In this document: positions 1-4,241 of the stretch, piece after piece
How positions within the stretch are numbered: the stretch's first letter is position 1
Layout of the letters: each line of letters begins with the position of its first letter
Sequence record: FJ539132.1
Length of the DNA: 4,241 nt
Direction: 5' to 3' (one strand)
Source: Qubevirus faecium
Made by a program: the position numbers and the translations under genes
The notes under the pieces: generated by a model
Seen by the model: the letters and a program-made list of their open reading frames with translations, nothing else
What the model was told of the DNA's origin: nothing
Database searches by the model: none

Positions 1-51
1 GGGGTAGGCCCCGTAAGGGGCCTGCCTTCACCGCACTACAGAGGAGAATCT
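1..51 (+). promoter_or_regulatory. 5' untranslated leader with terminal GGGG and a 5'-proximal hairpin (stem 5-12 / 17-24, GUAA tetraloop 13-16)
   Basis: Seen: AGGCCCC (6-12) is the exact reverse complement of GGGGCCT (17-23), extended by a U5-G24 wobble, with a GNRA-type loop GUAA. Established: Qbeta and MS2 RNAs begin with G-runs followed by a stable 5' hairpin; the complement of this end is the 3' CCC initiation site of the minus strand. Confidence 0.7.
41..46 (+). promoter_or_regulatory. Shine-Dalgarno sequence (GAGGAG) for the maturation protein gene
   Basis: Seen: GAGGAG at 41-46, 5 nt upstream of ATG 52. Confidence 0.7.
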
Positions 52-1374
52 ATGCCAGCCCTACCAAGAGGTCTTCGCTTTGGTTCGAATGGCGAAATCT
101 TAAACGATTTCAACGAGCTCTGGTTTCCGGAGCTCGTCTCATCCGAATTGAACTTAGGAACCTATAACCTCACGGGTTACATTAGTAACCTGCCGGGATA
201 CGAAGTGAAGGAGCGCAATAAAGGCTCTCATGTGCTTCGAACACCGTACCGTAGTACCGTGCCAGTAAACCATCTTGGATACAGGCCGGTTACGACAGTA
301 GAGTATAATCCACTGGGAACTTTCATCCGCCTGGATGGGGATGTAAAGTTTTCCGGAGGCTTGGTTAGCGCGTCGCTTAGACTTGACAACTACGTTGTCG
401 GTCTGGCTTCGCAGGCCGGTTTCGATTACCAGTCGGTAATCGGACCAAGGTTCTCATCGCAATTCTCCGCGTTTAGTACCAAATATGGTACTTTGCTCGG
501 GGAAGGGAGAGAAACACTTAGTTATCTTCTCCTGCTGTTTCGCAGAGTACGTGAAGGGATCCGCGCCGTAAGGCGTGGAGATCTCAAGCGTCTCAGGAAT
601 CTGGTTAGGAGCTACGAACCGACGTCCGTGAATGGACGTCGACAAGCAGCCTCCTTTTCAGGGACCTATCGCGACGAACTTGCCAATGGCAAGTGGAAAG
701 ACAGTAGTGCGAGCGACCTGTGGCTCGAATTCCGTTATGGGTTGATGCCGTTGTTCTACGACATACAATCTTTAATGGAAGACTTCATGCGTGTTCATAA
801 GAAAATCGCAAAAATTCAGCGATTCTCGGCTGGGCACGGTAAGCTCGTTGAGGTGTCCGGGACTTTCTACCCGGATGTCCACTTCGGCCTTGAGGTCACC
901 GCAGTGTTGCAGCGGCGTCATCGTTGGGGTGTCATATACCAGGATACTGGTTCTTATGCCACTTTCGACAATGGTCGGCTGGTCCCGGTGAAGGACTGGC
1001 AGACAGCGGCGTTTGCACTCCTTAACCCGGCTGAAACTGCATGGGAATTAACACCCTACAGTTTCGTTGCGGATTGGTTTGTGAACGTTGGTGATATGCT
1101 CGAGCAGATCGGACAACTCTATCGGCACGTCGACGTTGTCGACGGCTTTGATAGAAAGGACGTGAAACTCCGTAGCGTATCCGTGCGCGTGATTGCGAAC
1201 GGTGCAACGAACACACAGTTTGTCCTAAGACGAGCTAGTTTGTTGCATAGTTTCTATTCGCGCGTACATACCGTTGCGTTTCCGCAAATTTCACCACAAC
1301 TCGATACTGAGGTACGTAGCGTTAAGCACGTTATCGACAGTATCGCCCTTCTAACTCAGCGTTTTAAACGCTAA
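52..1374 (+). CDS. A2: Maturation protein (A2 / A protein), the pilus-binding virion protein; in Qbeta-type phages it also acts as the lysis protein
   Basis: Seen: 440-codon ORF, ATG at 52 with SD upstream, TAA stop at 1372-1374, first gene of the genome. Recalled: N-terminus MPALPRGLRFGSNGEILNDFNELWFPEL and internal blocks (FSAFS.KYGT, RAV.RGDL, LWLEFRYGLMPLFYDI, AWELTPYSFV.DWF.NVGDML, VVDGFDR.D, HV.DSI.LLTQR.KR) match Qbeta A2. Lysis function is inference from the Qbeta paradigm. Confidence 0.93.
   Translation: MPALPRGLRFGSNGEILNDFNELWFPELVSSELNLGTYNLTGYISNLPGYEVKERNKGSHVLRTPYRSTVPVNHLGYRPVTTVEYNPLGTFIRLDGDVKFSGGLVSASLRLDNYVVGLASQAGFDYQSVIGPRFSSQFSAFSTKYGTLLGEGRETLSYLLLLFRRVREGIRAVRRGDLKRLRNLVRSYEPTSVNGRRQAASFSGTYRDELANGKWKDSSASDLWLEFRYGLMPLFYDIQSLMEDFMRVHKKIAKIQRFSAGHGKLVEVSGTFYPDVHFGLEVTAVLQRRHRWGVIYQDTGSYATFDNGRLVPVKDWQTAAFALLNPAETAWELTPYSFVADWFVNVGDMLEQIGQLYRHVDVVDGFDRKDVKLRSVSVRVIANGATNTQFVLRRASLLHSFYSRVHTVAFPQISPQLDTEVRSVKHVIDSIALLTQRFKR
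1358..1372 (+). other. Small hairpin at the 3' end of the maturation gene (stem 1358-1363 / 1367-1372, loop UUA), overlapping the stop codon
   Basis: Seen: AGCGTT (1358-1363) pairs with AACGCT (1367-1372) around a 3-nt loop; UAA stop at 1372-1374. Function not determined from sequence. Confidence 0.4.
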
Positions 1375-1394
1375 ATCTTTGGGTCAATTTGATC

Positions 1395-1793
1395 ATGGCA
1401 AAATTAAATCAGGTAACACTTACCAAATTAGGTAAGGCGGGCGATCAGACTTTAACTCTTACTCCACGTGGGGTAAATCCCACTAACGGAGTGGCGTCGC
1501 TGTCCGAAGCTGGTGCTGTACCGGCTCTCGAGAAGCGAGTAACTGTGTCAGTTGCTCAGCCATCCCGTAACCGTAAGAACTATAAAGTTCAGATTAAGCT
1601 CCAAAACCCGACTGCATGCACGAAGGACGCATGTGACCCATCTGTGACGCGTTCCGCGTTCGCGGACCTAACGCTTTCGTTCACGTCGTATTCTACTGAC
1701 GCTGAACGTGCGCTGATTCGCACTGAATTGGCGGCTCTGTTGCAAGATCCTCTGATTGTCGATGCAATCGATAATCTGAACCCTGCATACTGA
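1395..1793 (+). CDS. Major coat (capsid) protein, 132 aa, terminated by a leaky UGA
   Basis: Seen: ATG at 1395 (the track's 1389 start is an upstream in-frame TTG giving MIM...; ATG 1395 gives MAKLNQ...), TGA at 1791-1793, two cysteines in ACTKDACD. Recalled: near-identity to Qbeta coat across PRGVNPTNGVASLS, PALEKRVTVSV, QPSRNRKNYKVQ, CDPSVTR, and C-terminal DAID.LNPAY. Confidence 0.95.
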   Translation: MAKLNQVTLTKLGKAGDQTLTLTPRGVNPTNGVASLSEAGAVPALEKRVTVSVAQPSRNRKNYKVQIKLQNPTACTKDACDPSVTRSAFADLTLSFTSYSTDAERALIRTELAALLQDPLIVDAIDNLNPAY

Positions 1794-2387
1794 GCGGCGT
1801 TATTGGCAGCCTCGTCTAGCGGTGGGGATAACCCAAAGCCAGACGTTCCGGATCGTCCAGACGTCAAACCGCCAGGCGGAACGGGCAGCTATCGCTGTCC
1901 GTTTACCTGTTACCGCCTCGGTAATATCATCGAGGTAGGGCAAAACGGTTCTCCTGACATCTATGCCAGGGGAGACGAGGTCCAGGTTATGTTCGATTAT
2001 GCTCTCGAGGATTTCCTTGGGAACACCAATTGGCGTAACTGGGATCAGCGACTATCAAATTATGATATAGCTAATCGTCGTCGTTGCCGAGGCAATGGTT
2101 ACGTTGACCTGGACGCAACTGCGATGCAGACCGACAGCTTTGTGCTATCCGGTAAGTATCCAGTGCGGAAGGTCAAGTTTCCAGGTGCCTTTGGCGCCCT
2201 CAAGTATCTCCTTAACATAAAGGATGATGCCTGGGTGGACTTGTCCGAGGTAACGGCCTACCGTTCCTATGGAATGGTCATCGGTTTCTGGACGGACTCT
2301 AAGAGCCCGCAGCTGCCGAGTGACTTCACCCAATTTGACAGTACGAATTGTCCTGTTCAGACGGTGATCGTCATACCCTCACTTTAA
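1395..2387 (+). CDS. A1: Read-through minor capsid protein A1 (coat plus C-terminal extension, about 330 aa with UGA decoded as Trp)
   Basis: Seen: the coat frame and the 1803-2387 ORF are the same reading frame (1395 and 1803 are both 0 mod 3); the track's M at 1803 is a TTG inside the extension, not an independent start. Recalled: extension blocks match the Qbeta A1 read-through domain (KPD.P..PD..PPGGTG.Y.CPF, LGNT.WR.WD.RLS, CRGNGY.DLDAT, PGAFG, VIGFW.D, FDFT.FD.T.CP.Q.VIV.P). Confidence 0.85.
1791..1793 (+). promoter_or_regulatory. Leaky UGA stop codon: programmed translational read-through site between coat and the A1 extension
   Basis: Seen: TGA at 1791-1793 is followed by an in-frame open frame of 197 sense codons up to TAA 2385-2387. 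Established: Qbeta coat UGA is occasionally read as Trp to make A1. Confidence 0.85.
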
Positions 2388-2395
2388 GCAACTTA

Positions 2396-2401
2396 AAGGA
2401 G
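2396..2401 (+). promoter_or_regulatory. Shine-Dalgarno sequence (AAGGAG) for the replicase gene
   Basis: Seen: AAGGAG at 2396-2401, 5 nt upstream of ATG 2407. Confidence 0.75.
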
Positions 2402-2402
2402 A

Positions 2403-2422
2403 TAGCATGTCTAAGACAGCTA
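2403..2422 (+). promoter_or_regulatory. Coat-protein translational operator hairpin covering the replicase start codon (8-bp stem, bulged A2407, 3-nt loop UAA 2412-2414)
   Basis: Seen: UAGC-A-UGUC (2403-2411) pairs with GACAGCUA (2415-2422); the unpaired bulge A is the A of the AUG at 2407-2409. Recalled: the Qbeta operator has the same 8-bp stem, bulged A and 3-nt loop, and coat dimers bind it to repress replicase translation. Confidence 0.75.
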
Positions 2423-4137
2423 GTCACAGAAAGAAAATTACTCACCTATTGAGTAAGGTCGACATCGACTTCGAAGACGACATCCATATGTCTATCGCCA
2501 ATGATCTTTTTAAGGCCTTTGGCGTTGCACCACTTACGTCAGCGGAGCAGTGTATCAACACTCCGTTCCCTGACACTTCGATGACTGCTGATGCATTTCG
2601 CATCGCGTATCTGCGGTCAGAGATCCTTAGTAAGTATAGTGCGCACCCTCTCGGTATTGATACCGAAGCAGTAGCTTGGGAGAAGTTCCTAGCTGCTGAA
2701 GAGGGCTGTAGACAAACGAACGAACGACTGTCGCAGGCTAAGTACCATGACAATTCCATTTTGTCATGGGGCGAGCGTGTTATCCACACTGCTCGTCGAA
2801 AAATACTTAAGCTTATAGGCGAGTCTGTTCCGCTCGGGGATGTGGCGCTGCGCTGCCGATTTTCTGGCGGCGCGACGACCTCGGTTAACCGTTTACACGG
2901 CCACCCGTCGTGGAAGCATGCCTGTCCGCAGGATGTTACCAAACGCGCATTCAAATACCTACAAGCGTATAAAATGGCTTGTGGTGACATCGTAGACTTA
3001 CGTGTCAATGAGGTGCGCACTTCGAATAAAGCAGTCACTGTTCCAAAGAACAGTAAGACCGATCGTTGCATTGCCATCGAACCCGGATGGAATATGTTTT
3101 TCCAACTGGGTGTCGGTGCGGTGCTACGCGATAGGTTGCGCCTTTGGGGGATTGACCTTAATGATCAATCCATCAATCAGCGCCTCGCACGCGATGCGTC
3201 ACAGCTTGACCATTTGGCCACTGTTGACTTATCCGCAGCAAGTGATTCAATCAGCCTTAAGCTGGTGGAGTTACTACTACCGCCTGACTGGTTTGGCGTC
3301 CTGACCGATCTCCGATCGGATCAGGGTATCCTACCTGATGGGCGTGCCGTTACCTACGAGAAAATATCCTCCATGGGTAATGGCTACACTTTCGAGCTTG
3401 AGTCGCTCATATTTGCAGCGATCGCTCGGAGTGTGTGCGAGTTACTGGATCTTGACCAATCAACTGTCAGCGTGTACGGAGATGATATAATCATCGATTC
3501 CCGTGCTGCTGCAACCCTTATGGATGTGTTCGAGTACGTTGGGTTCACCCCTAACAGAAAGAAGACCTTTGTAAGTGGTCCCTTTAGAGAGTCGTGCGGA
3601 AAGCACTGGCACTCTGGGGTTGATGTAACGCCTTTTTACATACGCCGCCCAATACGTTGCCTAGTCGACATGATACTTGTTCTGAATAGTATCTATCGGT
3701 GGGGCACGATTGACGGCGTATGGGATCCTAGGGTGCTGCCCGTATACCAGAAGTACGTGAATATGCTGCCGAGAAATTGGCGGCGTAACACGATACCTGA
3801 TGGTTACGGAGACGGCGCTCTCGTCGGATTGGCTACAACGAATCCGTTTGTTATAGTCAAGAATTTCTCGAGACTATACCCGGTATTAGTTGAAGTCCAG
3901 AAGGACGTCAAGCGTCACGAGTACGGCAGTTATTTATATGCCATGCTACGCGACCGCGAGACACGTTACAATCCCTTCCTGCGTGTCGCAGATGGGACTG
4001 GGTTTGATGAAGCACCGCTAGCTACTAGCCTTCGTCGCAAGACAGGTCGGTACAAAGTGGCGTGGATTCAGGACAGTGCCTTCATCCGGCCCCCGTATTT
4101 TCTTACGGGACTTCCCGAGGTGAAGCTTGCTAGCTAG
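2407..4137 (+). CDS. RNA-dependent RNA polymerase, replicase beta subunit (576 aa)
   Basis: Seen: ATG 2407 with SD, TAG stop at 4135-4137; palm motifs in frame: motif A TVDLSAASDSI (3220-3252), motif B SSMGNGYTFELESLIF (3367-3414), motif C YGDD (3475-3486). Recalled: N-terminus MSKTAS and many blocks (GIDTEAVAWEKFLAAE, CRFSGGATT, NKAVTVPKNSKTDRCIAIEPGWNMFFQLG, YEKISSMGNGYTFELESLIFA, FRESCGKH, TIDGVWDPR, IPDGYGDGALVG) match Qbeta replicase. Confidence 0.96.
   Translation: MSKTASHRKKITHLLSKVDIDFEDDIHMSIANDLFKAFGVAPLTSAEQCINTPFPDTSMTADAFRIAYLRSEILSKYSAHPLGIDTEAVAWEKFLAAEEGCRQTNERLSQAKYHDNSILSWGERVIHTARRKILKLIGESVPLGDVALRCRFSGGATTSVNRLHGHPSWKHACPQDVTKRAFKYLQAYKMACGDIVDLRVNEVRTSNKAVTVPKNSKTDRCIAIEPGWNMFFQLGVGAVLRDRLRLWGIDLNDQSINQRLARDASQLDHLATVDLSAASDSISLKLVELLLPPDWFGVLTDLRSDQGILPDGRAVTYEKISSMGNGYTFELESLIFAAIARSVCELLDLDQSTVSVYGDDIIIDSRAAATLMDVFEYVGFTPNRKKTFVSGPFRESCGKHWHSGVDVTPFYIRRPIRCLVDMILVLNSIYRWGTIDGVWDPRVLPVYQKYVNMLPRNWRRNTIPDGYGDGALVGLATTNPFVIVKNFSRLYPVLVEVQKDVKRHEYGSYLYAMLRDRETRYNPFLRVADGTGFDEAPLATSLRRKTGRYKVAWIQDSAFIRPPYFLTGLPEVKLAS
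3475..3486 (+). other. RdRp catalytic motif C (YGDD) within the replicase
   Basis: Seen: TAC GGA GAT GAT in the replicase frame (codon offset 356 from ATG 2407). Established: YGDD is the catalytic motif of levivirus replicases. Confidence 0.9.
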
Positions 4138-4148
4138 ACACTAGCTAG
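4130..4148 (+). other. Perfect hairpin over the replicase stop codon: two copies of the self-complementary octamer CUAGCUAG separated by ACA
   Basis: Seen: CTAGCTAG at 4130-4137 and again at 4141-4148 with loop ACA (4138-4140), giving an 8-bp perfect stem; the replicase UAG (4135-4137) is in the 5' arm. Confidence 0.6.
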
Positions 4149-4241
4149 TAATGGGAAGGGGCTCATTTGAGGCCCCGGAAGGAGAAAGAAAGAAAACTCC
4201 CTCCTGAGAGGGTGGGCTCTGCTTTGCCCTCTCTCCTCCCA
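4138..4241 (+). promoter_or_regulatory. 3' untranslated region with hairpins (for example 4158-4176 GGGGCU...GGCCCC; 4199-4212 CCCUC/GAGGG) and terminal ...CUCUCCUCCCA
   Basis: Seen: stem-loops as listed; pyrimidine-rich tail ending CCCA. Recalled: Qbeta RNA ends ...GCUUUGCCCUCUCUCCUCCCA, almost identical to 4221-4241. Established: replicase initiates opposite the 3' CCC, and the terminal A is added non-templated. Confidence 0.75.

Follow-up and report, generated by a model that had tools for sequence, protein, structure and literature searches.

A group IV Qubevirus coat protein with a one-residue shorter FG-loop cysteine spacer and a probable Qbeta-type disulfide cage

The coat protein encoded in the 4,241-nt stretch of DNA that we have analysed, referred to as the window, has two cysteines in its predicted FG loop, and these probably form the disulfide cage of a group IV Qubevirus in the same manner as the pair in Qbeta. 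We put the probability of this reading at roughly 0.8. The spacer between the cysteines is one residue shorter than in Qbeta, but on all of the coats compared the short loop is not peculiar to the window and is the fixed state of group IV. It is also already known, having been public since the SP genome record X07489. The finding in itself thus matters little, as the window is a deposited group IV phage with the normal loop of its group. However the question of disulfide linkage and stability could be of interest for the choice of virus-like particle (VLP) scaffolds and for the persistence of the genogroups in water.

The window is a complete Qbeta-like ssRNA coliphage genome, with GGGG at the 5' end and CCCA at the 3' end. 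Its genes are as follows.

52-1374: maturation/lysis protein A2, 440 aa (Pfam PF03863 Phage_mat-A).
1395-1793, plus strand: major coat protein gene, 132 codons and a leaky UGA (open reading frame, Pfam, exact NCBI match and fold).
1791-1793, plus strand: leaky UGA stop of the coat gene (UGA context, downstream Read-through domain and annotation of relatives).
1794-2387: read-through extension (Pfam PF16814 Read-through, E=1.3e-48).
2407-4137: replicase (Pfam PF03431 RNA_replicase_B).

All four gene products far exceed the Pfam cut-offs, and the order of A2, coat, read-through extension after a leaky UGA, and replicase is that of the genus Qubevirus (formerly Allolevivirus). An exact-sequence look-up identified A2, coat and replicase as NCBI ACT66749.1, ACT66750.1 and ACT66752.1, all labelled Qubevirus faecium. 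In a megablast search of deposited phage genomes the only full-length nucleotide matches were to group IV, namely HB-P24 (83.8%), NL95 (83.3%), SP (82.3%) and FI (79.8%), whereas the Qbeta genome gave only a patchy alignment at about 72%. The replicase has 83-90% amino acid identity to those of group IV strains. The window is nearer to SP, FI and NL95 than to Qbeta, MX1 and M11, as expected for Qubevirus faecium (genogroup IV), and is a group IV F-specific RNA coliphage that has already been deposited. It is probably strain HB-P22, to judge by the order of the accessions (ACT66749-52 stand just ahead of ACT66753-56 of HB-P24) and by a published list of group IV strains (PMC6963950).

Several other features of the genome may be recorded here. 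The relationship to other group IV strains varies along the genome. The read-through domain is close to that of SP (83.8% amino acid identity, 81-84% at the nucleotide level) and has only 68% amino acid identity to those of HB-P24 and NL95 (64-72% nucleotide). For A2 (52-1374) and the N-terminal part of the replicase (2401-2850), however, it is HB-P24 and NL95 that are close, at about 87% nucleotide identity as against 73-77% for SP. Such mosaic similarity suggests that group IV strains have recombined, or else that HB-P24 and NL95 carry a divergent lineage of the read-through domain. The length of A2 ranges from 438 to 450 aa across group IV strains. With regard to cysteines outside the coat, A2 of the window has none in its 440 residues, while the read-through extension has four, at extension positions 35, 39, 98 and 186, which include a C-x3-C pair.

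A coat-binding operator hairpin at 2403-2422 spans the replicase start, with the form UAGC-A-UGUC-UAA-GACA-GCUA and an MFE of -6.2 kcal/mol. Its shape is that of the Qbeta hairpin, in that the loop is UAA (3 nt) and one A is bulged, and the lower stem has compensatory pairs in relatives, being (A)UGC/GCA(U) in Qbeta, AAGC/GCUU in NL95 and UUGC/GCAA in FI. A scan of positions 1-4241 on both strands against Rfam 15 gave no family at the gathering score, and it appears that Qbeta-like operator hairpins are unrepresented or unrecognised in Rfam 15 for the lineage of the window.

The coat coding sequence runs from the ATG at 1395 to the UGA at 1791-1793 and encodes 132 aa. The TTG at 1389 was rejected as the start, as it is only the first possible start in the list of open reading frames, and annotated relatives all use the ATG. 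The protein matches Pfam PF01819 Levi_coat over profile positions 1-132 of 132, with a score of 189.3 bits (cut-off 25) and E=3.5e-56, and is 77-78% identical to the Qbeta coat. The UAC-UGA-GCx-GCG context of the stop is kept in HB-P24, NL95, SP and FI. The coat gene also supplies the N-terminal part of A1, the read-through protein, the extension running from 1794 to a stop at 2385-2387, and since A1 extends the coat by read-through of the UGA, the A1 copies bear the same cysteine loop.

We looked at the fold in an AF2 model of a single chain, made with a 29-sequence alignment (mean pLDDT 83, pTM 0.70). DSSP gives strands at residues 7-12, 18-28, 33-38, 48-54, 62-73 and 86-97 and helices at 102-116 and 119-126, so that the model has the N-terminal hairpin, five-stranded sheet and two C-terminal helices of the levivirus coat fold. 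The best structural match by Foldseek is the Qbeta coat chain 1QBE_B (TM 0.88, E=3.9e-16), followed by other Qbeta entries and then by the PRR1, PP7 and MS2 coats.

The coat has exactly two cysteines, C75 and C80 if the initiator Met is counted, or C74 and C79 in the mature numbering without Met that is used for Qbeta chain 1QBE. They lie in the context N-P-T-A-C-T-K-D-A-C-D-P-S, and the elements of the loop are as follows.

1614-1649, plus strand: codons of the predicted FG loop, residues 74-85 (DSSP on the AF2 model).
1617-1619, plus strand: Cys75 codon TGC (mature C74), homologue of Qbeta C74 (alignment).
1620-1631, plus strand: spacer T-K-D-A, 4 residues as against the 5 of Qbeta T-A-N-G-S (protein, DNA and HMMER alignments).
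1632-1634, plus strand: Cys80 codon TGT (mature C79), homologue of Qbeta C80 (alignment).

In the AF2 monomer strand F (62-73) precedes the predicted FG loop (74-85) and strand G (86-97) follows it, and both cysteines are inside the loop. The loop has the lowest pLDDT of the chain, with block means of 69 for residues 71-80 and 66 for residues 81-90, as would be expected for a flexible FG loop. In ssRNA phage capsids the FG loop surrounds the 5-fold and the 3-fold (quasi-6-fold) axes. In Qbeta itself residues 76-79 have been assigned to the FG loop (bioRxiv 10.1101/2022.01.23.477406).

The sequence-only reading gave the loop of the window coat as C-T-K-D-A-C, with the cysteines five residues apart, and this is what is seen in the translation of 1395-1793. 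It gave the Qbeta loop as C-T-A-N-G-S-C, and this was right, as the Qbeta coat (AB971354) reads so at the aligned position. The loop is indeed shorter than in Qbeta, by one residue in the protein alignment, and the HMMER alignment to the Qbeta chains in the PDB likewise has a single gap. At the DNA level the difference from group III is one clean in-frame 3-nt gap, which MAFFT puts after 1620, the exact place within the spacer being ambiguous. The alignments show the coat cysteines to be positional homologues of Qbeta C74 and C80, and thus the two residues that make the disulfide cage in Qbeta are both matched by aligned and invariant FG-loop cysteines. The C-x5-C spacing of Qbeta is not found in the window coat; like every other group IV coat compared, it has C-x4-C. 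Spacing is not strictly defining, however, as it ranges from x4 to x6 among relatives.

The difference in loop length between the genogroups is clear from an alignment of the coats of 15 isolates, eight from group IV (the window, HB-P24, NL95, SP, FI, BR8, BR1 and a laboratory mutant of SP) and seven from group III (Qbeta, MX1, M11, FrSangria, FrBurgundy, HL4-9 and VK). The loop is C-T-(K/R)-D-A-C in 8/8 group IV coats, the laboratory mutant having the variant C-K-K-D-A-C, and C-x5-C in 7/7 group III coats, so that comparison with Qbeta-like coats bore out the difference claimed. A tblastn search of all deposited phages gave 13 group IV matches over the whole query, each of 396 nt, as against 399 nt for full-length group III matches, and CTKDAC was found in 11/11 further group IV coats from environmental assemblies. 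We regard an error of sequencing or assembly in the window record as a negligible possibility. The 3-nt gap is shared by seven group IV genomes that were deposited independently and by eleven assemblies from the environment, which rules out an artefact and equally a mutation specific to the strain.

There is a separate irregularity a little downstream in the NL95 coat (AF059243, 1660-1675, equivalent to 1653-1668 of the window), where residues 87-90 are S-G-S-R as against S-A-F-A in all other group IV coats. The DNA difference is TCCGGTTCTCGCGAC against TCCGCGTTCGCGGAC, in a GC-rich run, and it looks like a compensated -1/+1 frameshift, due either to two genuine indels or to a compression error in old sequencing.

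Each of the two cysteines is found in all 15 isolates, and conservation is still at least 90% among 29 Qubevirus-like coats, so the presence of the pair is not due to chance. For a wider view, we searched about 5.8 billion proteins (nr and metagenomes) for Qubevirus-like coats and obtained 26 cluster representatives, the most distant with 56% identity. The spacing is 6 in 22 of these and 7 in two, one has no cysteine, and the only representative with spacing 5 is that of group IV. The two with spacing 7 are the metagenome coats P0005 (CPGPTGSC) and P0022 (CTSDSKTC). In the metagenome coat P0017 (138 aa) both cysteines have been lost and the loop, SVDPDGVNMPKDAV, is longer. Evidently, in the coats sampled, loop length can vary (x4 to x6) with retention of the cysteine pair.

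Group IV forms a compact clade in a neighbour-joining tree, where it stands beside group III and is nested among lineages with spacing 6. This was a quick, midpoint-rooted tree of a 132-aa protein, and we use only its broad pattern. As relatives outside group IV carry a loop of the Qbeta length, the short loop is a derived state, shared by all of the group IV genomes examined, and it is most simply explained by the loss of one codon, once, on the stem of group IV. We considered the short loop as the ancestral state and rejected it, as spacing 6 prevails in all other lineages in both the outgroup survey and the tree. The deletion took out the Gly that most relatives have two positions before the second cysteine (C-x-x-x-G-x-C).

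With regard to function, it is well documented that the Qbeta FG-loop cysteines form disulfides between subunits and so produce covalent pentamers and hexamers (PMC7467689, PMC6513524, PMC8880383). In Qbeta, PP7 and AP205 alike, FG-loop cysteine pairs link subunits round the icosahedral 3-fold and 5-fold axes, and the particles give both pentamers and hexamers on non-reducing gels (PMC7467689, PMC6513524). The Qbeta FG-loop disulfides persist in every type of hexamer (PMC8880383). With regard to spacing, PP7 has a coat with C67-S-T-S-V-C72 (PDB sequences), where the cysteines are five apart as in the window, and a shell that is disulfide cross-linked at both types of axis (PMC2211308). In the work of Liekniņa et al, pentamers and hexamers were also obtained from each of two coats whose cysteines are "five or six positions apart" (PMC6513524). 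Given that a spacing of five is cross-linked in PP7, and that spacings of five and six both give pentamers and hexamers, it is unlikely that the shorter spacer would abolish cross-linking.

The identical flanks, the shared loop and the strict co-conservation of the cysteines lead us to infer that inter-subunit bonding is most likely in group IV coats. We suggest that in the T=3 shell C74 of one subunit would bond with C79 in the FG loop of its neighbour (mature numbering), and that these bonds would close covalent rings, with five subunits round each 5-fold axis and six round each 3-fold (quasi-6-fold) axis, as in Qbeta. The one-residue deletion would be absorbed by the flexibility of the loop, with the ring slightly tightened and not abolished. 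The rings would be expected to raise resistance to heat and denaturants, but this stabilising effect is an assumption on our part, as disulfide-linked VLPs are not always the most stable (PMC6513524). We found no group IV coat structure in the PDB, where the close matches are all to Qbeta, and a full-text search of the literature on SP, FI and NL95 capsids, which did not cover older papers, found no disulfide or stability experiment.

The alternative that has most to be said for it is that the shorter loop alters the pattern of cross-links, which could then be confined to the 5-fold axes or be partial, or be replaced by a C74-C79 disulfide within each loop, making it more rigid. In that case stability, pore size or redox sensitivity would not be the same in group IV capsids as in those of Qbeta. 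The loop is truly one residue shorter, and the missing Gly could cut its flexibility; however PP7, with the same spacing, is cross-linked at both axis types (PMC2211308). Incomplete disulfide ladders have been reported for several VLPs, but in the same work pentamers and hexamers were obtained from coats of either spacing, 5 or 6 (PMC6513524). In 1QBE residues 76-79 are ordered at the 5-fold vertices and missing in the chain at the 6-fold vertices (bioRxiv 10.1101/2022.01.23.477406), so the two axis environments already differ in Qbeta. While C-x4-C could in principle close an intra-chain disulfide, the strict retention of both cysteines across divergent group IV genomes fits a retained paired function, and we consider an altered pattern unlikely.

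It is very unlikely that the cysteines are free thiols without any disulfide cage, kept for a folding or assembly contact, for metal binding or by a constraint on RNA structure. Both cysteines are co-conserved in nearly all relatives while every residue of the spacer and the spacing itself (5 to 7) vary, and the only lineage without cysteines has lost both at once. Co-conservation of the pair, and loss of both together in one lineage, is the pattern expected of a bonded pair. For a constraint at the RNA level only, the use of TGC and TGT differs between strains, which argues against it.

We think it doubtful, though there is some chance of it, that the deletion, with the loss of Gly and the presence of a K-D pair, has measurably changed the covalent rings of group IV relative to those of Qbeta. 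If it has, the rings could be tighter and the pores at the axes smaller, and the capsids could melt at another temperature or respond differently to reducing agents. Such a change could also contribute to the difference in environmental persistence between genogroups III and IV, and group IV coats could be a distinct VLP scaffold.

In comparison with known systems, the nearest are the other group IV coats. For SP, FI, NL95, BR1, BR8 and HB-P24 coat identity is 91-97% over 132 aa, and the loop, the length, and the leaky UGA with its read-through domain are all as in the window. SP has R in the spacer where the window strain has K, and there are a few substitutions elsewhere in the coat. The Qbeta coat (Qubevirus durum, group III; 1QBE, 5KIP and 7LHD) has a common fold with that of the window and identical flanks to the loop (NPTAC...CDPSVTR). 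However the Qbeta spacer is neutral and includes a Gly, whereas that of the window is charged (K and D) and has no Gly. Cross-linking has been demonstrated for Qbeta, and for the window coat it is inferred.

The PP7 coat (1DWN and 6N4V) has the same overall fold (TM about 0.75) and two FG-loop cysteines five apart, but it is from another genus and host and has only about 20% identity to the window coat. We treat its cysteine pair as an analogue in the same loop, with no implication of descent from a common cysteine-bearing ancestor. Finally, in AP205 and the uncultured-phage coats ESE001, EMS011, PQ-465, NT-391 and NT-214, paired FG-loop cysteines also link subunits round the axes (PMC6513524, PMC7467689), although these coats belong to unrelated coat similarity groups and some of them use consecutive cysteines.
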